From Neolecta irregularis DAH-3 (lineage: Eukaryota), in assembly GCA_001929475.1 (NCBI GenBank), contig LXFE01000132.1, positions 1 to 55,613 of the forward strand: DNA of 55,613 bases, read 5' to 3'. Shown here in pieces: positions 6,019 through 55,233 of the stretch. Within the stretch, counting starts at the first letter, position 1; each line of letters starts with the position of its first letter. The translations under genes were made by a program, and so were the position numbers. Below the pieces are notes generated by a model, which saw only the letters and a list, made by a program, of their open reading frames with translations, searched no databases and was not told the DNA's origin.

Positions 6019-7066
6019 ATGAAAGAGGACGATCTATATCGACAAACTTCGCAATTCAGATTATGGTCGTTCACCCCTACCGCCCTTCAAGATCTCCGCA
6101 GACGTACAAACTCTGCGGCTATCGAAAAGATTTCCGATTTAATACGTGAAGACGGGAAAGAAACATCAGGAGTCGATTTTCTCTCTTGGGAAGAAGAATT
6201 AGAGCTTGTCAATTTTTATGTAAAGAAGATGAATGACATTGCAGGTGTATTTAAGCTGCCGTCGTCTATAAAGGTATACTTTGTATACTTTAATCCACTT
6301 ACCTTTGGCCACCGCTACTACCTTTTTGAAAAGATTTTACCTGCATAACTCTGTCATGGATCATCATCCAAAAACCATCATGTTTGACAAACATCATATA
6401 TACGGCTGATACATCAGGCTCACATGTCTATTTCTCTGCACCAAGACCGAAAATTACTACATTCCTCTCGAGAAATTTGTTTCTACGATACCAAAGACGA
6501 CTGTGGACGATATTATTCCCCTCGAGCTACCGGTATCTCAGAGTTTAAAGTTTTGCTTCTCTGTACATCACCCTTATCGCCCCCTGCACGGGTTTTACCT
6601 CGATATGCAAGCAGTTTTACCAAACTATGAAAAAGATCGGTTGGGTAAATTGATTGGTGATGCGCGCAATGAAATTGGAGACTCTCTATACGGAGATTCC
6701 ATGTTTTTATATACCCCCTCACAGATATCACTGGCATGTCTAAGGAGTATCAACAGCTCAATTATCCAATTATATATCCAACAAAAAATCACAGACGATG
6801 CTCTACGCGAGAGATTGCTGAATGAAATTAGTGCAGCGCAAAAGCTTATCAAAGACTTTAAATTTCCGAGCAAGGAACGAGTAGTAGAGATTGATAAAAA
6901 GCGGTATTATTGCCAGAACCCCGAACGGAATCCCAACAGCCAGGTATTCAAGAAACGCAAGCAGCAGGAAGAAAATGGCGAACTAGAAAAAGCCAACAAG
7001 AAAGCGAAAATGGCAGAACAGCGTGAGAAAGAGGCTGAAAGTTTTCTTGGACCATGTGTAAAGTAG
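6019..7066 (+). CDS. CCL1: Cyclin H (TFIIH/CAK cyclin, Ccl1/Mcs2); first intron non-canonical GT-TG
   Basis: MKEDDLYRQTSQFRLWSF, ATATTFLKRFYL, LTCLFLCTKTEN, VHHPYRPLHGF, LYTPSQISLA. Confidence 0.93.
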
Positions 7067-7153
7067 ATAAAGAGTGGTTACTTGTATATATTGTCGTTTT
7101 TGGCGCGTGGGGTTAAAATATATTTCAGTTGCAGGAGGTTATCTTCATCCTCA

Positions 7154-9102
7154 ATGCCTCTCGTATCTCGCCCTAGTTATTACAGACTGACCTAGGATGG
7201 CAATGAAGATGATCTCAAAAAGTACTTTCCTACCGCCTTTGGGAAGCAGACTACTGCTCAGAATCTCGAACGCAAGTTTAACGAAACTAAACGATCGGTC
7301 AACGTTGTAAAAAAGCAGGTTCATACATTGTCAATCTCACAGCGCTGCTAACTATCCAGAATAATAAAAACAAAGTCGACAGTGAAGATTATGAAATAAA
7401 TAGCGAATCCTTGCCGAAACCAGGGTTCTCGTCATCCGAAGATGAGGACGATGATCTCCCAATTACTCACGAACTTGCTCTATTGTCACATACCCGAGCC
7501 GTTAGCACTCTGACCCTCGATCCGTCTGGTTCTCGTTTACTGAGCGGTGGCCATGATTTTTGCATGAAGTTTTGGGATTTTGCTGGAATGTCATCGAGTG
7601 CACGAGCTTTTCGATCCCTCGACCCTATACCAAACCATAGACTGCATCATATCCAGTATTCAGTCTCGGGCGATTCGGTTTTAATAATCGGCGGTAATTC
7701 GCAACCGAAAATTGTCGATAGGGAAGGCACAGAACTTGCCGAATATATCCGCGGTGACATGTATCTCAGGGATTTGCGGAATACTGAGTACGTTTTTAAA
7801 TATCCTCTGCTAATACAATAGTGGTCACGTCGCTGAAACTACTCACGGCGCATGGAACCCTATTGATCGCCAAACATTCATAACGTCGTCGGTGGACAGT
7901 ACAATTCGGTGGTTCCGTACATAAAAATCAGGACTAACTCGACAGAATATGGGACGTTAACCGAAAATCAAAGAATTCTTCAGTAATATTCTTGTCCTCG
8001 AAGCAGAAAGGACAAAAGACTGAAGTGACTACCTGCGCATATTCCCCCGACGGCAATACAATCGCTGCAGCTGGAAAAGATGGAACACTTAATTTGTGGA
8101 ATGCGAATGGGCCTTTCCACAGACCTACTTTCGGCGTTGTTAATGGACACACAGCTGGATCGCATACGAGTAGCGTGCTCTTTAGTCGAGATGGCAGGAT
8201 GCTTGTTAGTCGTGGAGGTGATGATACGGTCAAACGTAAAAATACAAAATTTATTGTACTGACCCGGCAGTATGGGACACGAGAAATTTCACCAAGGCTG
8301 TCCGATCGAAAGAAGGCCTTGACAATGCATTCTCAGAAACTAATATTGTCTATTCTCCTGATCAGCAATACCTTTGTTCTGGTATCAGTGTATCTCCGGA
8401 ATCAGATGGAACAGGCAGCCTCATGGTCCTCGATGCGATGACATTGGAGACTGTTCAACAAGTTCCTATAGAAAAGGCGAGTGTTATCAGCTGTCTATGG
8501 CATGGCAAGTTGAACCAGGTATGTCTCTTTCCCTAAATGTTTGTGACCAAAAGATAATTATTGGATCATCAAACGGTAAAATCACTGTACTGTATTCCCC
8601 AGAACTCTCAACAAACGGAGCAAAACTCGCTCTTTCAAAAACTCGGAAAAAACGGTTCATCGATGATGATGCATCACTTACTACTGATATCGATGGTTCA
8701 ACACTTGTCAACGTTCTTCCCAGCGGTAATCCTGATCCAACAGATTCTACACAGGTCTCTTCCCGACGACTGGCGAACATGAATCGGAAAGATCCCATCA
8801 AAAGCAAAAAACCAGACCTTCCTTTTGGAGGTTTGTGGGGTACTGGCGGTCTTTATGGCAAAAAACGCGAGCCTGAAAAGATCAGTGAAAATCTTGAAAG
8901 CATGAGAGACGAAGATCCCAGAGTGGCTTTGCTCAAATATGACGAACTTTCAAAAAATGATCCAATGTTCACGAGAGGTATATATCAGCGTGAGAGCACG
9001 GCTAATTGCGCAGCGTATCAGAAAACACAACCAGTGCCGGTATTTGGTGAATTTGAGGAAGAAGAGGAACATCAGGATAAGAAGTTGAAGCGCTACCAGT
9101 AG
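7154..9102 (+). CDS. WD repeat protein WDR70/GAD-1 homologue (7 introns)
   Basis: FPTAFGKQ, KFWDFAGM, GDMYLRDLRNT, SRGGDDTVKLWD, DEDPRVALLKY, AYQKTQP. Confidence 0.9.
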
Positions 9103-9219
9103 AATAAACTTTGTACAATATTGGAATGAACTATTGCATTTTCATTCCATGTGTAAAACTTGGGACCAACCTCAACACAACCTTTGCCCACTTCATCGTT
9201 CAAATTTGACCAATCCATC

Positions 9220-9561
9220 ATGAAACCTCTAGTCTCTCTTGGGTATGCCTATTGTTGCTCAATAGTCTCGCTGGTGGGTATCATATTCCTGGTACGTTTA
9301 TAATTAGGCCGAATACTATCGTTTACTCACTAGTTGGTTATGTCGGTTCTCTTTTCTCGAGATAACCACGCCGTAATGGGAAGTACCCACGATCCCAAGA
9401 ATGGAAAAGCAGTCGCCGAAACTTGTCTGGGAGCAGTGGTTGTATATGCGGTATGTTCCTGAAAGTTTCAGCTTTTGATAGTTACCCAGCTATTTCTGAC
9501 CATCTGTTCATGTCAAATTCTTCTCCACAGACGAAACCCCGCATATATCGCGCTGTCTTAG
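9220..9561 (+). CDS. Small two-TM protein, V-ATPase V0 subunit f / RNASEK-like (2 introns), absent from ORF track
   Basis: Spliced product MKPLVSLGYAYCCSIVSLVGIIFL-LVMSVLFSRDNHAVMGSTHDPKNGKAVAETCLGAVVVYA-LFLTICSCQILLHRRNPAYIALS; both introns GT-AG. Confidence 0.8.
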
Positions 9562-9956
9562 GGGTTTTCTATCTTTTCACTTCATTATGGCGCAATGTAT
9601 GTATAGAAGGCATTCCAGCCTTCGCGATTCAACGGTTGAAGATTTTAAGATTTGCTCACTGGTCCAAAGTTCTTTATGATCACATTAATTGGAGATTTGT
9701 GAGATTTACTGATATTCCGCGTATGAAAAGACAGAAATTATTTATATTGTGTAGTTTACACAAATCATCTTTTTCACTCTACAAAAGCTCTTGAATTACC
9801 TTGATCAAATGATACACCAGAGTATTGTAAATGTGATGTTTCTAGAGAGGCTGTATTTCAAAGTAAAGGAATAGATTGCAGATGATTGATTTTGAAGGTC
9901 TACAATGTTCCAGGGATTCGGAGTGACTGTAAAAATCGGTGAGAATATCTTGAATT

Positions 9957-10240
9957 GAAAAATGAGACAGAAAGCCCAATGATTCAGACTTACTGTAAGT
10001 GTCTATCAGGTTGTATTTCCTTAATCTAAGCTTGTAGGCGTGTGAGAGCGCAGCCTTTATATACATTTCTACTAATGTCCCTTATATCTTTTATCCGCCA
10101 CCTACTATGTATCCGGGATATACCCATACCAACATAACACTTACTGGAAAATGAGACAAGCGCATTCAGTCTGACTTACCGGAAAATGAGAGAAGAAGCC
10201 CATTGATTCTGACGTACAGGAAAATGAGACAGAAGAAGAT
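9957..10240 (+). repeat. Degenerate ~35-40 bp repeats (gaaaatgagacagaaagccca..gattc..gacttac), 4 copies
   Basis: Copies at ~9957, ~10147, ~10182 and ~10220. Confidence 0.7.
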
Positions 10241-10397
10241 TCCAACAGTACATCTATCTACCTTGCTTGGTTCAGTGGCAGTGAATCATTAGAGGAAAAC
10301 GAAAACTTTACCCGTGAGATCCAAGACAGTCTGTACATAAAAGAGGGCCGCCTTTCCACTTTTCTTACAATCTAGTGGTTATCTATATCCTCTAAAC

Positions 10398-11669
10398 ATG
10401 TTGTCAACACCGTTTATTCTTTTGCTTGGAATCGTTGCCGCTTCGCCAATGTTAAAGGCTCCGCGTGCTACTGAAGAGAGCCAGAGCACCCAGGTTACTC
10501 AGCTACCCCAATGGACTCAGTCACCGGCGGTTACTCCAACGGCTTATATCGACTATTCCAGTGATGATGAGCACTACGAGAGATATAACATGATCCAAAT
10601 GACTCAGGATCCGGAGGTTACCGCAAAAGAATTTCGCTTTCATTCTGGAAATTCTGATGATTCTGATGATTCTGGAAATTCTGACGATGATCTTGCTCAA
10701 TTCAATAGCCACAAGGCCCGGGCTACAGAGGAATATTCAAAAATAGTCAGAGATTGGATTGCCAACGCTCCCTCATGGCTCAATGACTTCTGGAATGCCA
10801 ATCTAGACGACGATGCCGAGTTTCAAAAGGCCAAGCCTGTAATCGCTACACTTTGGAATACGATTCAGCAGTTTGATTTGCCTTCAAAAAGCTACCACCT
10901 TTTGATGTTCCTCCCTGATGCATACCAAAATCTAGTGCGGCTCGTCGCCAGTTCTCTGCAGGAGGTTGACGTCTGGTTTTCCAACAACGAAGTCCATGAT
11001 CTTTTAACTGAATTCGTCCGTATCGGACGACATTTTAATGACGGAAATTTCAATCTAGCTCTTCTTGATCATTGTTTTGCCCACGCATTGGCTAAATCAA
11101 AAGATCAAAATCAAAATCAATATCAAGATCCAATGAAATTTCGCCTTCATTCTGGAAATTCTGATGATTCTGGAAATTCTGACGATGATCTTGCTAAATT
11201 CACTAATGAAGAGCTCGAAATCGTGGGCAAGGCCATAGAAAATTGGCAAATATCATCGAATTCGAATCTCGCTCAGCCTGAAAAACTCATGTCTGGAATC
11301 ATCAAATTATGGAAGATGATGGCTAGTATTGATATCCTTGCAGAAATTAATTCTGATGGTAAATACTATGATGGGTACTTTGTCCAATACTCTGATGACT
11401 ACTATGGACTCTTGCGCATTTTCATGCGTTGTGGAAAACAAATGGGGCTTGAGATGAGCTACTATCATGCTGAAGAATTTTTCGAAAGATACCACGATGC
11501 AACTAATCAAATGGATCTCATGGATGCCAATCTAGAATACTTTGCGAGCTTCTTCTTCAAAGAATTTGAGGACATTACTCGAGTTCTTCAATTCTTTGGA
11601 AGAGCTGAATCAGATGAATCAAGTACCGAAACTTTGGAAGAGCATGAAACAGATGAATCAAGTATGTAA
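10398..11669 (+). CDS. Intronless secreted acidic protein of unknown function with internal repeats
   Basis: 423-aa ORF, signal peptide MLSTPFILLLGIVAAS, two copies of KxFRxHSGNSDD..SGNSDDDLA; TATA-like tacataaaag at ~10334. Confidence 0.8.
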   Translation: MLSTPFILLLGIVAASPMLKAPRATEESQSTQVTQLPQWTQSPAVTPTAYIDYSSDDEHYERYNMIQMTQDPEVTAKEFRFHSGNSDDSDDSGNSDDDLAQFNSHKARATEEYSKIVRDWIANAPSWLNDFWNANLDDDAEFQKAKPVIATLWNTIQQFDLPSKSYHLLMFLPDAYQNLVRLVASSLQEVDVWFSNNEVHDLLTEFVRIGRHFNDGNFNLALLDHCFAHALAKSKDQNQNQYQDPMKFRLHSGNSDDSGNSDDDLAKFTNEELEIVGKAIENWQISSNSNLAQPEKLMSGIIKLWKMMASIDILAEINSDGKYYDGYFVQYSDDYYGLLRIFMRCGKQMGLEMSYYHAEEFFERYHDATNQMDLMDANLEYFASFFFKEFEDITRVLQFFGRAESDESSTETLEEHETDESSM

Positions 11670-11908
11670 GGCTGTGTGAGATATATCTTGAGTTGAAGCT
11701 GCATGGCGTACAAGTGTCACAACTGGAGACTCGTCTCCATTCTATCAAAAGCTGTGGCGAACTCGATTGTTACACTTGTAGATACCAATACTTTTTCCCC
11801 AAGAGTTCATCATTGGATTGAAATTTACTATTGATTTGACAGAAAGGAGTCCTGTATCCCGAGGAACCAAATGAAATTCCAATTCAGCTTTTCGCCATCG
11901 CCATGCCG

Positions 11909-12994
11909 TTACACGCCGCCTAAATTTCCAAAATTGAACTGACTTGGTTTATTGTTTGCAACAGCAGAACTCCCTTTGCTAGATTGTGGTATCTTAGCTT
12001 GTGGCTGAGGATATCTTACATTCAATCCCCAAATGTTTCCGCTGATGATTAGCAGAAGCAAATCCCGAATGTACTTGAATTTATCATCATTGACCTGCCC
12101 ATTGAGTCTCAACTTCAATTCGAAAAAGAGCTGGTATATTGCAAAACTAGTCATACTGCTAGACGGCGGGATCTGCCAGCGAGGCATTTGCAAATCATCC
12201 CATATGAACTGAACGCCCGTTTTGGAAGATTGAGTGGGCAAAAGGCTTTGGTATATTGTTAATACATCTTTTTTGTTCAGCAACCAATAGAGCCGTCGAC
12301 ATACCCCACATTTTGGGAAAGAACAGGGAACACAGTTCCATAAACTCTGTCTCGAATATTGGCAGAGGCTTTAGAGTCATACTTTTCAAGAGATATGCAA
12401 AATCGTAGAGCCTTGAGAGATGAGAATTAGTAAATACCTAGACATACGCATGATGTGCAACCCAGCGAACCTCATCAAGAAGGATAAGACCAGAGCTTAT
12501 AAGCAGTTCACCAAACTGCTCTACATCAATACCCCACTCTTCGTGCTTTTGAAAATCGACACCAGACTTTATGAGCGTGTCTGCCTGAGTTTGATGGATC
12601 ATATCAATTCTGAGTTTAGCCAATGTTGCACAATAATACATACTCTCTCGAAAATTTAAAGTTGAACTGCCAAGTCGAGCAATCCTGAGGGACGTTTCCA
12701 TCCTGGTCCGAAAAGGTCAAGCCGAGGCGGACGATTCTGAGGATGTCTGCGTTCACCCGCACCGTCTGGTAGTGATACTCGAGGGTGGACTTGAATGCTC
12801 CGATAGGTCGAGCTACGACGCCAGGATGCTCCATGGACTTGTGGTGTCAGGTTTCTCTAGAAAACAGTGCATACAAGGAAGACTACAGGGAACCAGTCTA
12901 TCAGGTTGCGGATAGTTGCGAGCTCAGTTTCAAGATTCTGCGACCAGACCTCGCGAACAACGGGAGATGTTCCAGCAAGTCGCTTTGGGGCCAT
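11909..12994 (-). CDS. CAF1/POP2-family (DEDD) deadenylase homologue with degenerate active site (5 introns)
   Basis: VREVWSQNL, PGVVARPIG, TWQFNFKF, FGELLISSGLILLDEVRW, YDFAYLLK. Confidence 0.88.
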
Positions 12995-13113
12995 TTTAAA
13001 GGGAAAAGTAGTGCTGAGGTATATGGAAATGGAGGTTCGTGACAGGCTATCCAGCGCGCCCGCATCTCCAGCGACTCCTATCTGGCCCCCTTTGACCACG
13101 CTCTCTTTATCCT

Positions 13114-15360
<2,247 letters not shown>

Positions 15361-15490
15361 GGGACGGGGTCTGGGAGTATTCTGAGCTTGCTAGGCATTG
15401 TTATAACATTTATTTGTGTACATGATGGTAATAGAAGAGATTGACTAGAGGTAGCTGGAGCAGATGGGAGCTAGCCGTCGTGGAGGACAG

Positions 15491-17262
15491 CTAGCCGTCG
15501 TGGAGAAGGACCGGCTTGAGGACGTGGGTGTCAAACTCTACGAACCAGCGGGCGCGGTGGTCGTCGTCGGCAGGAAGGGCGGGAGGCAGGCGGAGCGGGG
15601 CGGGCGGGAGATCCGAGTCCGAGTCGGAGGGCGAGTCTGGGTCCGAGGACGGGGCCGGGTGGACGATGCCGCGGGACAGGTCGATGCCGCGGGGGCTGTC
15701 CTCGTCGTCGACGACCTCGACGCCGGTGCGGATGCCGACGATGTCGAGCATGCGGGCGGTGGTGCCGCCAAAGACGATGACGGAGAGGACGACGACGACG
15801 AGGACGGTCGCGCGCAGGGTGCTTGCGTGCGGGCCCTGGATGCCCGCGGACAGCGCCACGCCGACGGCGCCGCGCAGGCCGGCCCAGAAGAGCATGATCT
15901 GGTAGGACTGCGGCAGGCGGTCGCGGCGCGCGAGGCGGTTGAGCAGGCGGGCGAGCGGGAACACGGCGGCATAGCGGGCGGCGACGACGGCGGCCACGGC
16001 CACGACGGTGAACAGCGGGCGGTACACAAAGTCGACCTGCGTGAACAGCGAGATGCCCAGGTAGATGAACACAAAGTTCTCCGACAGCCGCGCGAGCACC
16101 TGCAGCAGGCGGCGCACGGTGTGCTGCGCGCGGCGCGACATGTTGAGGTACGCATAGTGCTTCATCGTGATGCCGCAGAACAGCAGCGACACGATGCCTG
16201 GGTCAGCCAGCGCCTGTCTGTCTGGGGGGGGTACCCGACATGTGGCAGCCGTTGGAGAAAAAGTACGCCGCATACGCCAGCAGCACGACCAGACACGACT
16301 CGAGCTGCGGGTGCCGCCGCAGCTGCGTGTGCTTGAGCAGCAGCGCTGTGCCGATGCCCGCCGCGCAGCCGATCACCAGCGATCCGCAAAAGTTGAGCAC
16401 AAACACGCCCGCGCCCTCGACCGCACTCAGCGCATGCATCTGCGTGCCGTGGTACTGCTGCACCGTCCCGCCGTCAGCCCCAGCCGCCGGCAGCGCTCTA
16501 CGTACTCAAACATCACGATCGACACCGCGTCGTTCAGCAGCGACTCGCCAAAGATGATCGAGTACAGCTGCGGGTCCACCTGCCGCCAGTCAGCCCGCCC
16601 CCGCCCTGCTCGGAGAAGAAGAAGCCGCCTGCCTTGCACTGCGTAAAGATCGACAGCACCGTCACCGGGTCCGTCGCGCTCAAAGTCGCCCCCACGGACA
16701 TCGCGTCCAGGAACGACATCCGCACAGCCTCCAGCCCCGTCAGGCTCCACGCGTACACAATCGCCCCTATCACTATCGCAGAGATAAACGTCCCCAGCAG
16801 CGCAAACGTCAGGATCGTCCCGATGTTGCGGAAGAACAGCGCCTCCCCGTCAGCGGTGCCGTGCTGCACGTACCTGCCGCAGCTCAAACCCAGAATTCAG
16901 AATAATAGGCGGCAGCAGCAAATTGAAAAAGTACGAGTAGTGGAACGACACTTTCTCCTGGATCCGCAGCCCCGGCGACACCCGGATAATCAGCCCCACG
17001 ACCATGCCTGCCGTCAGCTCCCGCCCCCATCGCGCGCCCCGCACCCGCAAAGATAGACACCACGCTTTCGTGCACCGCCCGTATCTTGCGCCGCTGCAGG
17101 TAGTAGCTCGAGAATAGCGCAACAATAAGCAGTGCTACAAGAATGAAGAGCGCCCACGACGAATACAGCTCCTCAGTCACAGGATCAGACGGATCCTCAA
17201 TGTCGATCTCCGTTCCTAATGTGAGAAACGCACTGGGAACAGTCCATACTCTTGAATGGCAT
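15491..17262 (-). CDS. NHX1: Endosomal/prevacuolar Na+(K+)/H+ exchanger, 6 introns including one GC-AG and one GT-GG
   Basis: SSWALFIL, FFNLLLPPIILNSG, SATDPVTVL, IFGESLLNDAVSIV, SGIVSLLFCGI, LFWAGLRGAVGVAL. Confidence 0.93.
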
Positions 17263-17309
17263 GCTGTTGATCGGTGGGGTGCAGACCCTGAATCGTTGTA
17301 GAACGGTTC

Positions 17310-17317
17310 CACGTGAC
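17310..17317. promoter_or_regulatory. CACGTGAC E-box (Cbf1-type bHLH site) in NHX1/NDUFB3 divergent promoter
   Basis: Exact motif in a ~100-bp intergenic region; the same motif occurs at 20461-20468 and 26898-26905. Confidence 0.5.
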
Positions 17318-17364
17318 TTGTCTTGGTCCCATGCATCCGACACGCCGACACCGTGCATCACTAC

Positions 17365-17566
17365 ATGTCTATTCAAAATGACCCCTGGGCAAGACGGTAC
17401 ATCTCCCAGTATCAGTCCTAACCCAAGAAACGCATGGAGAACAAAACATTTATTCTCACCAGCATCGAGATTTAAAAGCGCGCTCCCGGGATTCGGAATC
17501 GCCTCTGGCCTATTTGCTATATACTGTCTCGTTGAATTCGTATCGTCGTATCGCAACCACGAGTGA
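17365..17566 (+). CDS. NADH:ubiquinone oxidoreductase B12 subunit (NDUFB3-like), one 31-nt intron (17397-17427)
   Basis: Spliced MSIQNDPWARRNAWRTKHLFSPASRFKSALPGFGIASGLFAIYCLVE. Confidence 0.88.
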
Positions 17567-17598
17567 ATTAAAGTAGAGCCAAGATAGATGTAGTCTTA

Positions 17599-18681
17599 TT
17601 ATATACTCTGCAACAACGCTTGTCTTTCACTTCGCGACGATATACTGCTCAAGTTGATCGCTCGAATTAATAGATCTGCTCTATACCTCCCATCTTGCTC
17701 GTCGTCACACCCGTCAGCCTTCTTCGCAATAAGATAAACGCCAGCAAACGTCGATAAACATCCTCCAATAAATAATTCCTTTTGATAGACATCGACCCTA
17801 GAAAACTCGTCGTATAGAATCCCGGAACCGACAATCACGCTCAGCGTGAACAGCACAAACTGGGTAGGCACAACAACCTGCTAATCAGCTACATCCCAAT
17901 ACACCTACCGTAGATTCGAACCGCGACAGTGCCCTGTTGAGAAACTTTACCTGAATCACCGCAGTAACAACCATCACCATCATCAAAACATAACTTATCC
18001 GATACGTAAACAGTAGATATGTTTGGCTTGAAAGCAGACAGGATAGCCCTTTGGTGGACAACACAGTAAACTGGCCAAAGATGGCTACAGTCCCCAAATC
18101 GAATAGCATATTCCGGTTCCCAACAAGACCAGACAACACTGCAAGAACCACACCGAAAAACAGCATAATCAAGGCGTATATAACGAACCCAGGAGACCGC
18201 AGTGCGGCAACAAGTTCATCTGGTCCAACCTGTCGTCAACATACGAAAAATGAACACTTGCCATTCGCTCCTCCCCACTGGACAGTACAATGACTACTGC
18301 ACCCAGACACGCAATTCCAACGCCAAACACCTGACGCGCTGAAATCGATTCATCCAATACTACAGGCGCAAATACCACGTTTGCAATCAACCCTGCAATA
18401 CCCAAAGGAGCCACTATCGACGCCTTTGTAAATCCGTATGCAACAAAGTTGCCCTACCGTCAATAACCACCCAACCACAAGAATACAATCTCGCCAATCA
18501 GCATAAGCAGAAATGCAAACCACCACGACATGGAAATATAGTACTGCCGACTAGATGCAAGATGAGACCGCCGCTGCAGCGTCAACGACAACGAGATGAC
18601 GATGTTTGACACAACGGCGATAAATATTCCGAGTAGAGTAAAGACAGATTGGTCCGCGCCCGTATCGGCCACGCGGTTCAT
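17599..18681 (-). CDS. NIPA-family magnesium transporter (3 introns, one GC-AG)
   Basis: WW..LLMLIGEIGNFVAYGF, APLG, FTVLSTKGLS, QVKFLNRALSRFEST.VVPTQFVLFT. Confidence 0.88.
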
Positions 18682-18777
18682 CGTCTTCAATGGCAATTGT
18701 TGGGGTAGCCCATTAGCTTCTCTTTCCCAGTTTCCCAATTTAAAGGCGCCCACGTGGATGAGATCACAGTACCCATA

Positions 18778-18890
18778 TGATTTAGAGATCACCCAGTCTT
18801 AGGATTTAGAGATCACCCAGCTTATGATTTAGAGATCACCCAGCTTATGATTTAGAGATCACCCAGTCTTATGATTTAGACCCATGTCTT
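18778..18890 (+). repeat. Tandem repeat, 23-24 bp unit (tgatttagagatcacccag(t)ctta) x ~4.5
   Basis: Directly visible between the RPT2 stop codon and the NIPA start. Confidence 0.9.
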
Positions 18891-18893
18891 AAA

Positions 18894-20397
18894 CTATAGA
18901 TATAGACCCTCTGGACTTGCTTCTTGCTTAGTCTTCAACACACGGTCTCGCGCCTTCCGAAAGTCATCTGCTGTCACTTTCATCCGTCGTTCCCGCAACG
19001 CCATCATTCCTGCTTCGGTACACATACTCTTAATGTCTGCACCAGAGAGTTCGTCTTTCGAAGCAATGAATTCTTCAGTGTCGACGTCGTCGCTCAACGA
19101 CATCTTGGCTGTGTGTATTGTAAAGATCTTGCGCTTTGTGTGCTCTAATCGTCAGCAATCATCCTTCAGGTCCCCTACGATCTGGATTCTCGAATAGGAT
19201 CTTCCGGTCAATCCGTCCAGGCCGTATAAGAGCTGGGTCAAGGTCGGATATACGATTGGTAGCCATAATGACCTTGACATCCCCTCTTGTATCAAATCCA
19301 TCAAGCTGGTTGAGTAATTCCAAAAGCGTTCTTTGGATTTCCCGCTCAGCACCTGACGACGAATCGTAACGTTTACTACCAATAGCATCAATCTCGTCAA
19401 TGAATACAATGCTAGGTGCATGTTCTTCAGCAACACCTAAAGTCAATTCATAGCTCCCATAAATAGCATACGAAATAATTCTCGAACAAGTTTTGGCCCG
19501 TCACCAAGGTACTTTTGGATCAACTCTGACCCAACAACCCGTAGAAATGTGGCGCTCGTCTGATTTGCAACTGCTTTAGCGAGCAACGTCTTTCCAGTTC
19601 CAGGTGCTCCATAGAGAATGACTCCCTTGGGAGGCCGAATGCCCATCTCTTCGTACAATTCGGGATGCGTCAATGGTAATTCCACAGATTCTTTGATTTC
19701 TTGAATTTGCGCTTCAAGACCTCCGATATCGGCATATGATTCTGTCGGCGCTTTCTCAAGTTTCATGACTGAAACCATTGGATCCACGTCGTCGTTCAAT
19801 ACACCAACCACCGAGATTGACTGGGCAGTCAGTAACTGGAGTAAACGTTACAACCTTGTGATGCAAAAGCACGGAACATCCAGGTTCGAGAAGGTCCTTG
19901 TCGACAAATGACATTATCCCAACATAATACTCGGGTCCATTCGTAGAAGACACAATGGCATGGTCGTCATCGATAATCTCTTCCAAAGTTCCAACTCCCA
20001 TAGGCGAACCACGGAGCTTGTCAACTCTAGATTGTTCCTGCTGTGTCTTCTCGTCCTGAGGCTTCAGCCGTTCTTGATTTTGCACGAATTCTTCCTCCAG
20101 CAACAGATAATCTTTGATTCGCTCCAGTTTGAGTAGCTTGAGTTTACACCGAGTGTTTGGGTACACTGCAGGGAGTTTGTTCGATGCGTCGGGGCCACGA
20201 CGTTTCTTTTTCCCTGCTCTCGGTGGTATAGGTGGTTCAAACTTGTGTTTCTCCTTCTTCAGCGGCGGGTGTTAGCACAAGACGATAGTAGGCGGTACCT
20301 TGTCCTGCTTTTCCTTGCTATCCTTGGAATGACCCTGACCAGACTGTGTATTCCCCTTTGCTAGTCAGTATACCGAGAGAAAGTCGTAGCATGCCAT
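18894..20397 (-). CDS. RPT2: 26S proteasome regulatory AAA-ATPase subunit 4 (5 introns; ATG alone in first exon followed by a GC-AG intron)
   Basis: MGNTQS N-terminus, [55 protein letters not shown]-terminus. Confidence 0.97.
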
Positions 20398-20460
20398 TAG
20401 TGTTTTGTCGAGATCGTGGGTGGATCAAATTCGTAAATACGTCAGCAAATGAAATGATGG

Positions 20461-20468
20461 CACGTGAC
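20461..20468. promoter_or_regulatory. CACGTGAC E-box upstream of RPT2
   Basis: Exact motif ~65 bp upstream of the ATG. Confidence 0.45.
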
Positions 20469-23991: not shown

Positions 23992-24084
23992 GTTGCATAG
24001 TCCCACAAATTTATTTGCAACGATGATGATTGTGATGACCATGTTTACTCTCTTTGTTTAATATTTGTACGTAGGTAGATTCTG

Positions 24085-25027
<943 letters not shown>

Positions 25028-26827: not shown

Positions 26828-26897
26828 TGGGACTAATTAAAAGTCTGGTTTTTGTTATGATTTGTAGCGACGAAAGAAATTGTGTCTTGTGATTCAA

Positions 26898-28848: not shown

Positions 28849-28857
28849 ATACATTTT

Positions 28858-34268: not shown

Positions 34269-34298
34269 TTATTCATCTTGGTATATATTATCATATTA

Positions 34299-39418: not shown

Positions 39419-39453
<35 letters not shown>

Positions 39454-40728: not shown

Positions 40729-41055
40729 GCTCTCGAGGATATCGATGTATTATCGATAGAGTATCGAGTGCTGATATCGATGGATATGGAATCAGAAAGA
40801 ATGGCCGGAAGCGGAGAGAATGTGGTGGATCGAAGTTTGTAGCTGCTGGTACGGCTGAGCGTGGACAGGCTTGGAAATGGCGCAGCAGCACTGGACCGTG
40901 CTTTTTATTTGGAGCGGATCCCTGAGCGCATTCCTTTGCCCCTGCGAATGCCCCTGCATTGCGCCACACGTTGGTGGTTATGTGGCGGTGCTAAATACTA
41001 TCGCTTAGATTGACTGAATAAGTTGACAGATTGAGTAGACTGTGCTGATATATAC

Positions 41056-45995
<4,940 letters not shown>

Positions 45996-46134
45996 CTGGA
46001 CGACAAGTATGCTTTTGGTTTTGGCAACTGCAAAACAATAATGGGTGAGTGGTAAATTGGCGATCTCAAATGGTGGAGTAGAAACTATAAGCTAAAAACA
46101 CCCTCTGAGTTCAAACCGGGCACCTTAAATAGCC

Positions 46135-47430
46135 ATGCTTCGCCTTCTTTGCCGCCGATCTTGCATAACTTTAACAAAGTCGTGCGTCTGTATAAAGAGA
46201 CAGTTTAGCATTCTTGGAATCGAAGTAGGCCCTATTATCGGTTATTGCTGATTTGTTTGGACTAGCTGCGATGACACCAGCGTGTGTCTTTTAGATATTC
46301 AGAAAGGGAAACCACCGGAAATCCTCGAGCATGTTGTACATAGATCTTTGGACCTGCACGAGCCGTATGGCGGAATACATCCAAGTGTTGCGATGGTGAG
46401 GAGCTAGATCACATAAACCACTGACAATAATACAGACTTCACATAATACAAATCTGGCGCCAATACTTTACGATATCGTTCATCAATATATAAACAAGGA
46501 CGGGCGAAGAATAGATTTGGTTGCTGTAACCAGAGGGCCGGGTTTACCTGGAAGTCTATCCTCGGGATTGTCAACAGCAAAAGGATTGTCGATTGGTCTC
46601 GATACAAATTTCATTGCCGTACATCATATGGTAGGGAACCATTTGCCATTGCTAATAGTGAGCAAGCTCACGCGCTCACACCTCGTCTATTGTCATCTAC
46701 ACAGTCTCCAGAATTTCCATTTTTATCACTTTTATTATCTGGAGGTCACACGATGCTCGTGCTCTCAAGATCGTTGATAGATCATGAAATTATTGCATCA
46801 ACGGTTGATATCGCCGTAGGAGACTTGCTAGACAAATGTGCTCGTCATCTCGGGGTTACTTGGCAATCGAAAATGCCAGCCGCCGCTATGGAAGCTTGGT
46901 CTTCGGACGCCGAGCTTGGTGATAATCAGGACTGGGACTTTACAATACCTCTTGAAAGAAAACCAACGCATCGTTCAACGTTGGCCTTCAGTTTTTCCGG
47001 CTTAGGAAGTGCGGTTGAGAGACTTATCGTTGCTGAAATGAATGAGACAAGGAGAAAGTCACTTGCTAGAGCAATCCAATTTACCGCCTTTGAACATATC
47101 ATTAGAAAAGTCATTTTATCGCTCGAACAACATGATCTGTCGGTTTCTTCTCTTGTAGTCAGTGGAGGTGTTGCTTCCAATAAGCTACTACGATCCCATT
47201 TTCGTCAAAAGTTGGAAGAAAAAGGATTCCACAATATCGAGCTTGTGTTTCCACCGGTTGAGTTTTGCACGGACAATGCAGCTATGATCGCATGGGCTGG
47301 TTACGAAATGTACCAAGCAGGATATAAAAGCGAGCTTTCCGCGCTTACATTGCCTAAATGGCCGTTAAATGAGATGATGGATGTCAAAGGATGGATTCAT
47401 CAGAGTACATTACCGCCATTATGTAATTAG
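46135..47430 (+). CDS. QRI7: Mitochondrial tRNA N6-adenosine threonylcarbamoyltransferase (Qri7/OSGEPL1); first intron GT-GG
   Basis: LGIETSCDDT, YGGIHP, VTRGPG, VHHMQAHALT, LSGGHT, VVSGGVASN, CTDNAAMIAW. Confidence 0.95.
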
Positions 47431-47590
47431 AATCCTTTTTCCATTTTTCACCCCAAGAACATTATGTAAACCTCTTCCTACAGACATCATTGTCCAAGTG
47501 ATCTGATTTGTATAATTAATGATTAGCGTTGGCGTTGCTGCCACACCAAAAATTAACAGGCTGACTTTACCAAGGTGTGCAAAGTCAGTT

Positions 47591-48464
47591 ATGCGAATTG
47601 CATGTGTTCAATTTGATTCCAAGCTCGGAACTCCACAAATCAACATTAGGAAAGCAAACGATCTCATAGAGCGACATGTTCAATCTAAAGTGGATGTATT
47701 GGTACTTCCTGAAACTGCTTTCACAGGTAATACAACAGATTGTTGGTATGTGCTGATCCAAAGGCTACAACTTTAAATCCATCGAACACATAGACAAACA
47801 TCTTGAACCCACCTTACAAGGAATTACCTCGATTTGGGCAAAAGAAACTGCTGCTAGATTATCCTGTATCGTTATAGCTGGGTATCCAGAAAGGTCTGGG
47901 GAAACTCGCTACAATGCGGTTGTAATAGCAAGACCGGATGGCACCTTGTCCAACTACCGAAAGCATTTTTTATATACGATTGATTTAACATGGGCAACGT
48001 CAGGACCAGGCTTTTCTACATTCAACTTTCCGTTTGGAAAGGCAAGGGTCTCTAAGCTTGATGGTATACTGATTCGCAAGAGTTCTGTTGGTATATGCAT
48101 GGATATGAACAATGGAACGGACTTTTCCACTCCCTTTGAAGCATACGAGCTCGGCACCCACATCACCACGAACGAAATAGATTACTTGTTACTTCCAACG
48201 GCGTGGTTAGCGCCAGAGGACATGCCAGATGACCCAAAAGTACCTAGTATGTCGACTATAAGTTATTGGGCCGAGCGCCTTCGTCCTGTGTGGAACAGAA
48301 GCACAGGAAATGATCTGATTTTTGTGAGTTGTAATAGAATCGGAGAAGAAGATGATTGCAGGTATGCCGGGAGTTCGTGTGTTTTGCGGATAAAACCTGG
48401 GCACATTGAACTTTTGGGCAAGCTGGGATCTGCAGAGGAAGCGGTATTAACAGTAGATGTATAA
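47591..48464 (+). CDS. NTA1: Protein N-terminal amidase (nitrilase superfamily, N-end rule)
   Basis: MRIACVQF, VLPETAFTGYNF, GYPE, NYRKHFLY, GICMDMN, YWAERL, CNRIGEE, YAGSS. Confidence 0.88.
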
Positions 48465-48577
48465 AGAAACACAAGTTCACATAATAAAAAGATATACAAG
48501 ACATATCAATATCACCCGCCATCCTGTTCAAAAAATAAAATCGCGAAAACAAACACTTGTTGACTATCTCGACATAG

Positions 48578-49342
48578 TCATTGGATTTTGGCTCCAGCAG
48601 AACCATTACCGCCATCAACAGGAACATAAGGTTTACCGCTTTCACAGGCGCGTTTCCAGGCATCGGCCTCCCTCCAGGCCCGTTCGCATTCGGTTTTGAG
48701 TTTTTCATTGGCGGCAGTAACTTCCTCGATGGCTTGGTTCGTCATGAGTTTTTCTAGTGTCCATTTCTGAATATATTCTTCTTCGTTCTTCTTTAGCTGT
48801 CGGATATAGTTGACGGCTTGGGCAAGGATCTGAGATTTGTTCTTATCGCAGCCAGGCACAATCTTGGATAGTTCACTGCAAACGCGTCAATTCATAAACC
48901 AAAACGGCACAAACATACCTGATGCCTTCATTGATAGTCTCTCTGCGTCTTCGCTCGACTTCTTTGTGGTTATCTCGCCTCATTTTGTGCCATTCATCTG
49001 AGCCCACAATAGGTTTGTTTTCGTCGCCATCGCAGGGAGGATTGGTCAACGACCGTCTTGCTCTCCCAGGTGTAGAGTCATCATCAGCGGCACGTTTCCT
49101 CTTGCCATTTGCCGCTTGAGCAGACGCAGAAGCCTGATCTTGAGCAGCACTGGAAGTCGAAGCCGAAGTCACGTTTGTTGCGTGAAATCGTGAGGCTTCT
49201 CGATGGTTACCCATCTACATGTCAACCATCAACACCCACAGGACCAGACTTTACGCACCTCAGTCAAAAGACTCAGGACCTGGTCATCTTTGATAAGCGG
49301 CTCGGAAGTGAGAGATGGATCGATGTTCGAGTTGAGCGACAT
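48578..49342 (-). CDS. CBF1: bHLH-LZ transcription factor, Cbf1-like (2 introns)
   Basis: VGSDEWHKMRRDNHKEVERRRRETINEGI, KNKSQILAQAVNYI, WTLEKLMTNQAI. Confidence 0.9.
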
Positions 49343-50599
49343 GGTGTGGGCTGCAGCAAATGCCAGACTCGGATTTCCAACACTCGCCTTACTCCACTCG
49401 TGACGTATTTGACCGGGATATGGTTTATACATCGATATACTCCCAAACTGTTCTATTCTATAACCTTGATTATACCGCACGAATTCTGCGACAGGCACAA
49501 TTTATTTTCGGGAATCCGTCCTGCATTTTTCCCAGTCTTCACTAGAACTTGGTTGAATACACCTGGTTGCAATACATGTGCTCGAACGCCAAAAACAGCA
49601 TGGAAAGTTCAGTTTGCAAAATCTCTAAAGAAATGATTTGATAGTCATTCGAACACTTTACACCCTTGTTGAGTTGCAAAATACAGCAATATCTTTACGC
49701 AGTCGCTTGCTGTTACTCTATTTGAAGTATTTCTATAATCAGACTGTTTGGCTTTTGGAAATATGAGAGCACGCAAAGATATACGAACACTACAGCCTGC
49801 CGAATATCAATTGGCTTTTCTAGTTGTAATTGCATCTTTTCCCCTTGCGTCAGGGTGAAATGCAGTTAGTTATTATCTTTTTCCGATTTTTCATTCCATA
49901 TCCTCTTCATTGTACTACAGTAGTCTGATTGTCGTGGTGTCTGTATCATCAGCTGTCCGAGAAATGTAAGATGACCATAAAACAAGGCTAGATGGAATTA
50001 AGTATGGTCCATTTCCTTTTCGTTCAGAGTTCACAAGCAAATATTCAGCAAAAGCTGAAACTAATTCTAAAATACTGGCAAGAACTCTACCATGGAGTAG
50101 CAGTTGTCAAAAAAATTCGAGAGATGGCGGCGCGAGATAATGGAGATCTGTTTCTGTGGTGCTCCCATCGGATGAATAAAACATTTTGTCCAAGGGTCTA
50201 CCGCTCAAAGACCACGCAATACTCAAACACGACCGGCACCAAAGTGGCTTCAAGCAAATGAACAAAGCTCAGCGATCTAATGATCAAGTGGGTGACTTTT
50301 CAGGTCCCTTGCTTCCTCCTGTATTATCAATTAAACCATACGATTCCACAGGATCATTCCGCGTCGTGTACCTGCGTAAACCTTGGAACAAACAGATGCT
50401 CTCCTTGGAAACTCCTCGTTCGATATCCCTCGGAAATTGATTAAGACCATCCGCTTTTCTTTCGACGAATATTCGAATCCACACACTCATTATAGAGATC
50501 TCTAGATCTTTCTACCCATAGCTCATCTTTCCTTTTTTTTCTCTCTCTCTTGTGTTTCATACCTTTCTCTGCTTACTTAAAGCCCAGTCTCTCTTCAGG

Positions 50600-51870
50600 A
50601 TGAAGTTTTGCATATTCTCGGCTTTGATAGTCGTTCCTCTTGCGCTTGCTTCTGCGCCTGGTTAGGACAAGGAAATTGTTCGTGGTGTGAACATTGACGG
50701 CTAGCTCATTAAGGAATACTGTTCGCTACCGACATGATATGATTTTTGATGCTAATGTTGAAGGGATGCAACGGTCAGTATATCAGCAAGCACCAACATT
50801 AACCAAGCAGAAACATTCGCCGGGGTTAATGTTGGTGTTTTACCTGACGAGTGGACGATATGCGAGAAGCTAAGTCAAACCAAGCGAGCGACGTTTCTCC
50901 AAAATCATTGGTCGACATGGTGGTTCACTGAACAAGATCTCCAGGATCTCGCTAGCACGCGAATCAATTCGTCTACTTCGTTCATCAGGCGCACTAACAA
51001 ATTAGTATTCGAATTCCTATAGGATATTGGGCATATCAACAGTATGGCTTGGATGGGGAAAGCTATAGGCTGGGCTCGATCTGCTAGCATTAAAGTCTAG
51101 ATCGATCTTCATGGTGCTCCTGGTTCACAAAACGCCTTCGACAATAGCGGCCATGCTGGTACTATGGTCTGGCAAACCGGAAGCAATGTTCAGCTCACAA
51201 TCGATGTCCTGGTCACAATTGCCAAGAAATACGGAACACCAGCATATGCCGATGTAGTTGGATGCAATTGAGTTTCTTAATATAAACCAGCTACATGGGG
51301 GTACAAATAACAATGCTGTTACCCGCAGTTTTGAAGGCTGTTGTAACGAACGATGACCTGTTGATTACAATTTACGACAATTTTCTGACTCCAGCTCCTT
51401 GGACAGATTTTCTGGGACCACCAGCCAATGGAAAACCCGGTGTTGATACTCAGATCTATCAAGTCTTTGACGCCTATCCTCAACCTCTCGATATGGATGG
51501 ACACATCTGTAGTCAGGTCAATGAACTTCAGTCTCCCAATAATTAGTCTCCGGTGGAGATTGGTCAGCAGATCGTTCCATTCGCGCTAACACAGACGGTT
51601 CGAATTTTGCTGGAACTTCAGAATTAAGAAATTGTAATGGTCAATGTTAATGTAGCGAATCCGGAGCTCCTTGGTCCCCCGCTCTTGTCAGCCAAATTCT
51701 AATGTTCGTGGAAGCACAATTTGATACATGGGAGAAAGCAAGCTCTGGTTGGTTCTTTGTGGCGTTCAAGACAGAAGACAAACCTGCATAGGACTCCACG
51801 AAAGGCACTCAGAATGACTGGATTCCTCAACCACTTGATTCCCATAAATATTCTGGTCAGTGCAGATTTA
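50600..51870 (+). pseudogene. GH5 exo-beta-1,3-glucanase (Exg1-like) pseudogene
   Basis: Signal peptide, VRGVNI(D)[49 protein letters not shown]; in-frame stops and frameshifts, including at the NEP catalytic motif. Confidence 0.88.
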
Positions 51871-52320
51871 CATTGTCTTCTATGGCTCACGTTTCAAGCT
51901 CGACCACCGGTTCTTTGACACACAACCCTTCGAGTCAACGACACGAATGCTGTCAAGTCGGCACTTGCGCCTGTGTCCCGCCATACGCCGAATAGTCTCT
52001 CGACATCAACTATAGTTCTCTCACCCATCAAACTGGCGAGATCGTGCCACTCAATCTTCCAGTGGCACCCAATCTTCTGTTCGGCCAGTTCACCAAGGAT
52101 GTCATTGTTCAGGGAAGCGGCTCAACAGCAACACCCAGTTTTCCTAACATCACGGCAACTTTGACTGGTATTGTCTTCATCACTGAATGTTCCTATGCCA
52201 AGATAAAAGTAAATGGAAGGACAGACAGACAGACAAGGCCTAAAGGAGTGGAATGGAAGAATAGGCATCTTTCTGAAGTAAATATTGATGAATTTAGTTC
52301 GCCAGTAGTATGAAAGACTA

Positions 52321-52955
52321 TTATGACTTCTTTTTCTCCGGCTCCAGTAGCTGAGTTAAGTGAAAATACACTCGCGGAGCTACCACTGTCCAACAAATGA
52401 CTCCGACCAAGATGATCAATCCGGCTACAGGCAGTAGGCTCTCAGGCATAACTCCGAGTATCAGTTTATCCAGAACTGCAAGAATAAGTGATATAGCGCA
52501 GACCAGGATACTTGCTCAATATGAACTCCATCTCTGGTACATTTGTCATCAAGTCTTCTATATGCGAGTAGTAAGTTGCCTCTGCAAATAAGCGGATGAA
52601 TAATATTTCATTCTCATAGAAAGTACTTAAACGAAAAGCTGTTGGCGACTTTCGAGGACCCAATCAGTCAATTTCTTTCTCTGCCGGGACCACTCACACT
52701 AGCTGCCCAGCAAACCCTTACTTCATACTTCGATCCCTCGACCAGGCCTACCAATCCGTATATCCTTTCGACTCCAAACGAGTCTTCCGAAGTCGAAAAA
52801 GCGGGTACGATAGTTTCTTGGAACCGAGGTTCATTAGGAGATAACCACGTTAATTTAGGAAATTTAAAATCTGACGTTTTCGGAGCCGTAAAGATCGTCT
52901 TTGCGGTATTCGCGTACACCTGTAAACAGAAAGCAAGCAGGGGAAATATCAGCAT
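52321..52955 (-). CDS. Pga1-like ER membrane protein (putative GPI mannosyltransferase II co-activator family), 2 introns
   Basis: Signal peptide then ANTAKTIF, KYEVRVCWAASSPTAF, ILDKLILGVMPESLL plus TM segment, KKKS C-terminus (ER-retrieval-like). Confidence 0.65.
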
Positions 52956-55233
52956 GATTTTCCAGGAAGACGTAGTAGCTGTGCAGCAGCTTATGGATAT
53001 GGGGTTCAAAAAGGATCAAGCTGTTCGAGCTTTAAAGGTATACCAAAGTGAACCAACACGCACTACTGACGATTCTGGAAAGCAAATAATGATGTTTCAA
53101 AGGCCTTTGATTATATTTTTAGTACAGATACAGACTTTCAGGTAATTTTCATTTTTCTAAAGTCTCTAAAGGGTCAATCTGTAGGACATTGATAACATTA
53201 ATACACTACAAGACTGGCCTTCTTCCACAAACGTCGTCGATTTGACTCAAGGCTTGTCCGGTTTATGAAGATAACTGATTGATCAGGCGAGGATGAAGAC
53301 ACTCGCTACGCGCGTCAATTGCAAGAAGAAGAAAATGCTAAAGGACGATCATCTGCATATAACGGCCAACAGATACGGCCACACAGTCATGAGGAAACAA
53401 AAGGCAGAAATACGACTATCTGCTCGGTTTCAAACATGCAAATAGTCCCTTATGGCCCTCGAGAATCCACACCAATCGTCGAGATATACAATGAGCCACC
53501 ACCCCATGAACGCATTCGCCAGCACGGAGCGTATGAGCATTCTAGGAAGCGGTCTTTTAACCCAAGGTCTGTGGTTATTCGCCCAAATTCAAGGTCTCAG
53601 ACAGACCGTAATGTCCTGTCGCCACTTATTCAAATTCTCTATACCATCCCACTATTTCGATCAGTTGTGCTATCCTTAAATCTTGTGTCTGAGCTGGAAG
53701 ACAGAGTGAAACTTCTTTTGGAAGAAGACGAACTTGATCAAGCGGATGATCGTAGTACTTTTCCGCTATGTAGTTCTCGCTTAATATTAGCTCATGCGAC
53801 CCAAGAACTCGTACTTGAATGGGTTCTTGCTGCTCTTCAGTATACCTTTGCGTCACTGGAACTTGGTAATCGTGCCTATGTTTCGGGCGAACCAATCCAA
53901 AAAGCCTTCTCCCTCTTCTCAATGACACAGAATGCTCCTTGTGGCGGAGGCGATTCAAGTATCAACGAACGATATTGATATGCTAATCTGAAAGCTATCA
54001 TAAATTTCTCTTCATTCTGGGACCAGCTTATGCGTACGTCTATAGACAGCAGCTGGTTTTCAGCTTCCCCGAGATACTTTAAGGGTATTTCTGTTGCTCA
54101 AATCGAACTCCTGGACAACATCAAAGGGTACATTTTGGGCATAACTTGCAACACTTAATACTCAATAGCTCATTATTCTCGACCCTAGTAACGCTACCGA
54201 ACAACCCAACATACGCCTACTTTGATATATCTGTTCGGTCGATTTCCGATGCATCAACCACACTTTACGACTACCTCGACAACATCGTTGGGAGCAAAAT
54301 CAGGGAAGGGGTCTATCCAGTTTCTTTTGCGCCCATTCTTATCATTGTTTTTCACAGTGCCGGCATTGGCACTGGAGTGTCATTGCCAGCAGAGATTGAC
54401 CTCGGCCGTTATTCCAAGGAAATGAGCAAGGTGATGGTAGAACGGTTGAAAAAAGCAGACAGTGTCCAGGCTCGTATTCCCGAATGTCAGGCAGATATTG
54501 ACAAACTTTCTTGGTTCAAGGTTTATAGTCTCATCTTCTAAGTTGGCAGCTAACAGCCTCAGACCTATTCAATTGCAGAATTATTAGCTGCTTCTCAAGC
54601 CTTTTTCAAATCTCATCCCCATTGTCACGAAAGTGATGAAAATCCTCTACCAGAAGACGGAGCTCCTATACTCGATCTGACGACAAAAATTGAGAATTTA
54701 CAGCTCCAAGTTTATAACAAGTTAGCGGAACTGAAAGACAAGAAGAAGGGGTTTGAAAGTGAAATTGAAAACTTGACAGATCTATCTACATTGCAGTCTG
54801 AAAAGGAATATAGGCCAAATAAGTATCACTTAAGCGGATTTCTGAAAACCCCTTCGGATGCATATTTTGATAATGACGGAAGATGGTGGCATACTGCTTT
54901 TTCGTCGAATTTCGGGTATACCTCCGAAGCAGTCTCATTCGAAAATTCAGTTAAGCTGGCGAAAGATGATGGAGAGATCATCGCTATCTTTGCTTCCAAT
55001 GTCGCTTGTGAGAAAGAATCTTCAAATATTGCTAGTAGTTTGAGATTGAAGGTTTGTTTCAGAGCAAGAAGTATCAGTCTGATTTCTCTAAGGAACTCAT
55101 CCTGGCTGAGAACGCCAAGTTTGATGAGGAAATTACACAAAATGGTGTTGTCAAGGATCAGAATCAGACTCAGAATGATGAGCATGCTATATCGGGTCCG
55201 ATCGAAGACAATGCAGAACCTGGATCTGTATGA
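52954..55233 (+). CDS. UBA-domain protein with SIM/UIM-like motifs and degenerate USP-like region (Rup1-like), 8 introns, first GT-GG
   Basis: QQLMDMGFKKDQAVRALKKANNDVSKAFDYIF (UBA), VVDLT, ARQLQEEE, LIQILYTIPLFR, YHLSG, GRWW. Confidence 0.7.

Follow-up and report, generated by a model that had tools for sequence, protein, structure and literature searches.

The stretch analyzed here (the window) is contig LXFE01000132.1 of the Neolecta irregularis DAH-3 genome assembly (GCA_001929475.1), 55,613 nucleotides (nt) long, intron-rich and gene-dense, with 45.2% G+C. Its genes include those for cyclin H (Ccl1), a Cla4/PAK kinase, the endosomal Na+/H+ exchanger NHX1, an RPT2-like 26S proteasome ATPase, QRI7/TsaD, an enzyme of mitochondrial t6A synthesis, and a USP-like protein with an N-terminal UBA domain, and in each of these six genes one intron ends in a dinucleotide other than AG. 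Non-AG acceptors genuinely recur in the DNA of this contig, and RNA shows the use of at least two of them. We consider it probable that these are ordinary U2-type introns of a Taphrinomycotina fungus, a minority of which have the A at –2 replaced and are still removed at that place.

Data and Scoring of Junctions

For the junction test, single exons were scored against family profiles, asking whether the profile positions continue from one exon to the next. A spliced protein-to-DNA aligner was written for this analysis and run in two modes, accepting either only canonical AG acceptors or any NG acceptor. Contigs of two sequencing runs, X1 (DNA, organism A) and X2 (organism B, recorded as "DNA?"), were placed on a 20-kb part of the window; the QRI7 and UBA genes are situated outside this part, and the cyclin H region (5001–7001) is without contig cover. 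The contigs of X2 omit short segments with GT..AG ends on the strand of the gene concerned, and, as introns are skipped in them, they represent transcripts. Eleven listed single-intron joints of X2, all within 18.8–25 kb, were inspected.

Intron Census and Anatomy

Forty-five introns have been examined, placed via RNA, homologues, profiles, or the deposited gene model, of which 35 are GT-AG, four GC-AG, and six GT-BG (B is any base but A: three GG, two TG, and one CG). Five of the six had been reported in a first-pass annotation made from the sequence alone; they are present where it placed them, apart from one boundary in Cla4, with GT donors and lengths of 34–41 nt, and profiles or homologues run gap-free across the non-AG end each time. 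The sixth, in the RPT2-like gene, is added here. All six fall in the range of 34–41 nt, compared to 31–53 nt (median 36) for the whole set of 45.

The donor is GT in all six non-AG introns, which start with the hexamers GTATAC, GTAATA, GTACGT, GTACCG, GTAGGC, and GTATAC. None of them has AG at the 3' end (TG, CG, GG, TG, GG, and GG in the order of the window), while every one of the six retains the terminal G and has a pyrimidine at –3, so that the acceptor trinucleotides are of the Y-B-G type (TTG, CTG, CCG, CGG, and TGG). The earlier observation that the terminal G is always kept thus extends to the pyrimidine at –3. A branch sequence CTGAY or CTAAC is seen in five of the six, and the cyclin H intron has CTTAC or TTAAT; these motifs are common to the 39 AG introns. 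Within the five introns reported before, CTGAY is indeed present in four and the branch is weaker in cyclin H, as the first-pass annotation had it.

The distance from the branch A to the splice site in the non-AG introns is 6, 9, 9, 9, and 12 nt; for cyclin H it amounts to 6 or 14 nt, depending on the branch chosen. It overlaps with the distances observed in AG introns (5–13 nt, median 7, with one intron at 19 nt where the branch call is doubtful), in agreement with the previously noted similarity of spacing. In all six non-AG introns no AG occurs within 12 nt past the branch, and the nearest one beyond that ends between +13 and +32. The first base of the downstream exon is A in four of the six.

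AG is favored when within reach, since in the 53-nt NHX1 intron CGG at +7 is bypassed and CAG at +10 taken. The spacing from branch to site has a lower as well as an upper limit, as AGs positioned 3–4 nt past the branch A are bypassed for the next AG: the intron at 24358–24392 (– strand) skips AG at +4, as shown by RNA, and that at 54521–54562 (+ strand) skips AG at +3 according to the deposited model, the AG used instead being at +6 or +9.

Short and fixed branch distances bring to mind the U12-type (minor-spliceosome) introns, which tolerate varied termini and in which the distance from the branch determines the 3' site. The initial 9-mer of the cyclin H intron differs by one mismatch from the U12 5' consensus. 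According to a review of such introns (Turunen et al., 2012; PMC3584512), the optimal distance is 11–13 nt, and other termini work. However, the U12-type 5' splice-site consensus is found in none of the six non-AG introns, and in five of them the branch is CTGAY or CTAAC, as in AG introns. An Rfam scan of the window yielded no match, small nuclear RNAs included, which means little for 55 kb. To our knowledge, no minor spliceosome has been reported in Ascomycota. Taken together, a U12-type origin of these introns is very improbable.

Stwintrons with an interrupted acceptor, in which the outer acceptor is split by an internal intron and two complete introns are nested, were also considered and rejected, as 34–41 nt is the size of one intron here (31–53 nt), and each of the introns has one donor and one branch.

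As the sample includes genes picked for such introns, the true non-AG rate is below 6 of 45. In less biased subsets, non-AG ends constitute none of 14 introns in a YCF1-like gene and one of 11 in the listed RNA joints, which comprise nine GT..AG, one GC..AG, and one GT..TG introns. The YCF1-like gene served also as a control: alignments with six full-length homologues yield 14 consensus introns, 13 GT..AG and one GC..AG, and when NG acceptors are allowed, no consensus non-AG intron is added. Hence, the aligner does not invent non-AG ends.

Attempts at a census of introns beyond those with homologues were not productive: codon bias is too weak for a filter, an open-frame filter gives a nearly equal number of matches on the reversed sequence, bridging of pairs of open reading frames is far too noisy, and the spacing between CTRAY and the first AG, calculated across the whole window, shows no clear peak.

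Introns Supported by Transcripts

The RPT2-like intron (20260–20298, – strand, GT..TG, 39 nt, C at –3) has a CTAAC branch 12 nt before its end. An X2 contig with depth 437.8 links 20259 to 20299, the shorter side of the joint being 83 letters. The sole other register of this joint is GG..CT, and no flanking direct repeat suggesting a reverse-transcriptase jump is present. The bin depth of 389.8 out of 437.8 corresponds to exactly 73 nt (34+39) uncovered, and therefore no intron-retaining contig contributes depth here. An in-frame AG is located 3 nt downstream of the TG and is unused in the X2 contig.

These data bear on the possibility that we observe tolerated defects, that is, an ordinary spliceosome facing mildly harmful AG-to-BG mutations, which have been fixed by drift and lead to inefficient splicing or multiple products dealt with by surveillance. 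It would agree with AG being still the rule (39 of 45 introns), with the choice of AG over the upstream CGG in the 53-nt NHX1 intron, and with the low-level use of BG sites described for wild-type budding yeast by Roy et al. (2023; PMC10711555). However, the TG junction of the RPT2-like gene is the only contig path, depth leaves no space for an intron-retaining contig, and the form using the in-frame AG is not the assembled one; moreover, the affected genes have core single-copy functions. We regard such defects as an unlikely explanation, although the least unlikely of the alternatives considered.

The Cla4 intron (14714–14748, + strand, GT..CG, 35 nt, C at –3) has a CTGAT branch 9 nt before its end. 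The CG end given in the first-pass annotation is retained, while the boundary at 14751 is not, as the intron ends 3 nt earlier, at 14748, according to both the profile and the transcript length: with the 35-nt intron the Pkinase profile runs directly from position 106 to 107, and the 38-nt version (14714–14751) leaves position 107 empty. In X2 the gene is covered by record 9 (depth 226), whose pieces stop at 14712 and restart at 15284, with 434 letters per 571 genome letters, that is, 137 nt are skipped over 14713–15283. Other introns contributing to this sum are those of 37 nt (GC..AG), 32 nt (15058–15089, canonical GT..AG), and 33 nt (the last one), and by subtraction the disputed intron is 35 nt long.

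The second length sum comes from bin depths of the same record. The values 218.6, 201.6, 204.0, and 213.5 equal 226 × covered/667 with 22, 72, 65, and 37 nt uncovered, respectively; the method recovers the known uncovered lengths of two bins (22 and 37 nt), and the 72 nt in the bin 14339–15005 are the sum of 35 nt and the 37-nt GC-AG intron. In its leftmost register, the intron 14714–14748 gives the observed piece end at 14712, while the 44-nt GT..AG option would stop at 14711. As the lengths and the piece end fit the 35-nt intron, the Cla4 transcript uses CG at +9 rather than AG at +18. Transcript data thus bear on two acceptors, the CG of Cla4, for which the previous claim is upheld by calculation, and the TG of the RPT2-like gene, absent from the earlier list and seen directly.

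Introns Placed by Profiles and Homologues

The first intron of cyclin H (6274–6307, + strand, GT..TG, 34 nt, T at –3) has a branch-like CTTAC 6 nt or TTAAT 14 nt before its end. In the NCBIfam profile ccl1 (TIGR00569), exon 1 covers positions 1–78 plus one spare residue, exon 2 positions 80–103, and exon 3 positions 105–304, so that removal of the 34-nt GT..TG intron makes the profile continuous at 79|80 and the protein gap-free. The solved Ccl1 chain aligns as far as the end of exon 1. Just four in-frame GT/GC..AG alternatives exist, 70–79 nt long, and each of them loses 12–15 residues; the first-pass model of this intron is therefore kept.

The same is true for the first intron of QRI7 (46225–46260, + strand, GT..GG, 36 nt, T at –3), which has a CTGAT branch 9 nt before its end and contains an in-frame TGA. 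Exon 1 has an ATG and 30 codons, and its five final codons account for profile positions 1–5; exon 2 aligns from position 6 of TIGR03723 (the TsaD equivalog) and from position 5 of TIGR00329. Both canonical alternatives remove the conserved N-terminal strand.

The NHX1 intron (16468–16505, – strand, GT..GG, 38 nt, C at –3) with a CTGAC branch 6 nt before its end was analyzed by homologue scoring. When 1362 in-frame junctions without stops were scored against 40 homologues, the GT..GG model came out best (333.8), and the best canonical one scores 311.6. The latter, a 44-nt intron at 16501–16458, uses GT four bases and AG ten bases downstream and was not mentioned in the first-pass annotation. 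The length of the segment produced by the GG model is found in 87 of 120 homologues, and that of the canonical model, in none of the 120; moreover, the Thr replaced by the canonical model is present in all 26 printed homologue rows that cover the segment (28 rows were printed). In 20 of 20 NHX1 homologues, alignment with NG allowed outscores the AG-only alignment by 13–38 units, with 15 of the 20 choosing exactly 16505–16468. The canonical alternative is thus poor, and the GG end stands as the best model. Bin depths do not discriminate here: with the depth of the neighboring contig taken as 263.3, neither 38 nor 44 nt fits without an assumed contig overlap. Protein searches with the last exon of NHX1 gave no match above 67% identity.

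The UBA intron (53038–53078, + strand, GT..GG, 41 nt, T at –3) has a CTGAC branch 9 nt before its end. The upstream exon ends at position 24 of the 37-position UBA profile, and 13 residues of the next exon fit positions 25–37 with no indel. The canonical in-frame rival, a 35-nt GT..AG intron at 53048–53082, costs only a two-residue loop insertion, and these two residues are left unaligned by the profile. Judging by the profile fit, the site modestly favors GG, yet is ambiguous; hence the intron itself is retained from the first-pass annotation, and its GG end, given there as the sole reading, has an acceptable competitor not mentioned before.

Canonical introns with other boundaries, GT-AG or GC-AG, would explain the non-AG ends if the resulting small protein differences were real. 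In-frame alternatives of this kind exist for UBA (35 nt, two residues more), NHX1 (44 nt, two residues fewer), and Cla4 (44 nt), and the Cla4 intron at 15058–15089 shows the ease of mis-modeling: it is a canonical 32-nt GT..AG intron, and a 26-nt model of it is wrong. Yet the RPT2-like joint has no canonical register, the 44-nt option in Cla4 is contradicted by the piece end and two independent length sums, the NHX1 alternative yields a segment length found in none of the 120 homologues and replaces a conserved Thr, and no alternative in cyclin H and QRI7 retains the conserved residues. Mis-modeling of all these introns is accordingly improbable.

Genomic Support and Points of Doubt

The contigs of X1, long pieces with word depths of 333–513, show no differences from the window across the Cla4, NHX1, and RPT2-like introns. 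This agreement rules out assembler error at these sites, and the genomic check of the –2 positions covers these three sites only.

Still, the window could contain sequence errors or rare broken alleles, with AG in the true or common allele. The RNA and DNA runs differ in the organism code and at a few places, and the cyclin H, QRI7, and UBA sites are outside the coverage by run contigs. However, X1 matches the window at the three covered non-AG sites, and only about ten places outside the 9.8–11.3 kb repeat are listed as differing between X1 and X2 (e.g., 13068, 17695, and 19351), which makes differences at two –2 positions very unlikely. Six hits at one intron position with intact exons are also incompatible with random error. 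We therefore assign this explanation a very low probability.

Several observations weigh against the preferred reading, that ordinary U2-type introns are spliced at non-AG ends, among them the canonical rivals of the UBA and NHX1 introns described above. RNA support is available at just two of the six non-AG sites, by a listed joint in the RPT2-like gene and by arithmetic on coordinates and depths in Cla4. X1 may itself be the source of the window, and its agreement therefore leaves read-level artefacts possible. As X2 comes from organism B and X1 from organism A, and the introns are unseen in X2, an AG allele in B is conceivable. The rate of 6 of 45 is drawn from genes partly chosen for non-AG introns. 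Finally, the RPT2-like intron bypasses CCG at +6 and +9 for CTG at +12, whereas Cla4 uses CCG at +9, and the exact site is thus not predicted by a simple distance rule.

Possible Mechanism and Comparison With Known Systems

The data agree with, but do not prove, a choice of the 3' site by distance. The proposal made in the first-pass annotation, that the site is picked by distance from the branch point with the A at –2 dispensable, stands as far as the use of real non-AG sites is concerned, and is overstated in that 39 of 45 introns end in AG, and AG is preferred in reach. We suggest tentatively, and with somewhat less than even confidence, that the major spliceosome of this fungus ligates at any Y-N-G approximately 6–12 nt past the branch, resulting in several per cent of constitutive non-AG acceptors and nearly a tenth of GC donors, core genes included.

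In the mechanism proposed for the preferred reading, introns would be defined mainly by the CTRAY branch site located only 5–13 nt from the 3' end, and the very short tether between the branch and the 3' end would allow only a site about 6–12 nt downstream to dock for exon ligation. The yeast P complex shows pairing of G(–1) with G(+1) of the 5' splice site and a contact of A(–2) with the branch adenosine (bioRxiv 10.1101/212811). The last G of the intron would retain its pairing with the first one, and loss of the contact made by A(–2) with the branch might be tolerated when no AG is within reach, AG being used whenever it is in range. The G contact could suffice and the A contact be dispensable because the short tether (normal spacing 5–10 nt) would offer the active site just one small stretch. 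Natural branch-to-site distances in budding yeast are no shorter than 10 nt, and Prp18 is thought to serve as a ruler, its loss activating branch-proximal and BG sites (PMC10711555).

A close resemblance is to Saccharomyces cerevisiae without Prp18, in which, according to the same study (Roy et al., 2023; PMC10711555), BG 3' sites are activated (UGG, CUG, ACG, UUG, and others), and the last G can interact with the first intron base. The motif class, the branch-proximal location of sites (there many are closer than 10 nt), and the retained last G are shared with the introns considered here. Moreover, A at exon position +1 aids some non-consensus sites in the Prp18-less yeast, and is present at four of the six sites here. 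The yeast sites, however, are alternative, mostly low-use sites of a mutant, competing with annotated YAG (PMC10711555), whereas here the organism is wild type, the non-AG site yields the conserved protein, and the first 12 nt past the branch contain no AG.

In human U2-type introns, TG as an alternative 3' site has been verified by transcripts in 36 genes, according to Szafranski et al. (2007; PMC2374985). Unlike these human sites, here TG, CG, or GG gives the conserved frame, and six of 45 introns of one contig are involved. The human TG sites reportedly are alternatives beside a regular AG. With U12-type introns the non-AG introns share the short fixed distance between the branch and the 3' end, the absence of a polypyrimidine tract, and the tolerance to non-AG ends; but a 5' splice site and a branch sequence, both highly conserved, define U12-type introns (PMC3584512), neither consensus is seen here, and all signals are common to the surrounding GT-AG introns. 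As in GC-AG introns, one terminal dinucleotide is relaxed and the other signals carry recognition, although GC-AG introns, well known across eukaryotes, alter the donor and not the acceptor.

Thus, non-AG use is known already as a yeast mutant phenotype, in rare human TG sites, and in U12-type introns. Our literature search on splicing in Neolecta and Taphrinomycotina, in which most hits were seen as listing entries only, found no description of non-AG acceptors; the words intron, splice, and splicing do not occur in the main text of the genome paper (PMC5309816), whose supplementary methods may cover intron modeling. For the major spliceosome, the terminal AG of introns is regarded as invariable, and structures explain it via two active-site RNA contacts. 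A natural organism routinely lacking the A at –2 would be a system to ask what enforces the fidelity of the 3' site, and would show how far the branch-to-site distance can stand in for sequence and how much of the yeast prp18-mutant behavior is the normal state elsewhere.

GC-AG Introns, Deposited Gene Models, and Other Features

The four GC..AG introns are situated at 14849–14885 (+ strand, Cla4, 37 nt, placed by profile continuity with positions 139 and 141 on either side), 16580–16632 (– strand, NHX1) and 45302–45338 (– strand, YCF1-like), both placed by homologue alignments, and 24472–24509 (– strand), placed by an X2 joint. GC-AG introns usually constitute about 1% of introns, and four of 45 is a far higher share. 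One GC..AG intron with a poor donor, GCGATA, is still spliced in the X2 contig, and donor hexamers are highly variable overall. From these donor sequences, the 5' end looks relaxed as well.

Around non-GT-AG introns, the deposited models of this contig are cut short or distorted. The model of the USP-like gene (53436–55230, + strand, 533 residues) begins at an internal Met and is without the UBA exons. The YCF1 model (41485–45858, – strand) has 1311 residues compared to about 1500–1550 in homologues, with the last three exons missing; in this model the GC-AG intron is read through, followed by a spurious 43-nt GT-AG "intron" within an exon. The deposited protein set seems to be without a usable NHX1 model. 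Wherever predictors require GT-AG, the annotated genes of this fungus, and perhaps those of related species, are therefore systematically wrong.

The NHX1 locus (15491–17200) has 65.6% G+C compared to 45.2% in the whole window and 46–51% in its neighbors, and long open frames are seen there on both strands. The gene at 10341–11669 has internal repeats; in the region 9800–11600, contigs of both X1 and X2 deviate at many places and carry small indels and skips of 98–162 nt, and word depth reaches a peak of about 15,000 near 9670–10336. The repeats, the contig differences, and the depth point to a repeated or collapsed element at 9800–11600. The end of the contig (1–1200) is of low complexity, with long CT-rich and triplet repeats, and is open in several frames on both strands.

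The Ubc1-like E2 gene (– strand) contains, at approximately 24652–24729, a 4-nt micro-exon, GACG, between GT..AG introns of 35 and 41 nt. The X2 joint from 24651 to 24730, with 78 nt skipped and two letters between, is an exact fit to this micro-exon. An exon of 18 nt is likewise present in this gene, corresponding to the X2 joint from 24838 to 24928 with nine letters between.

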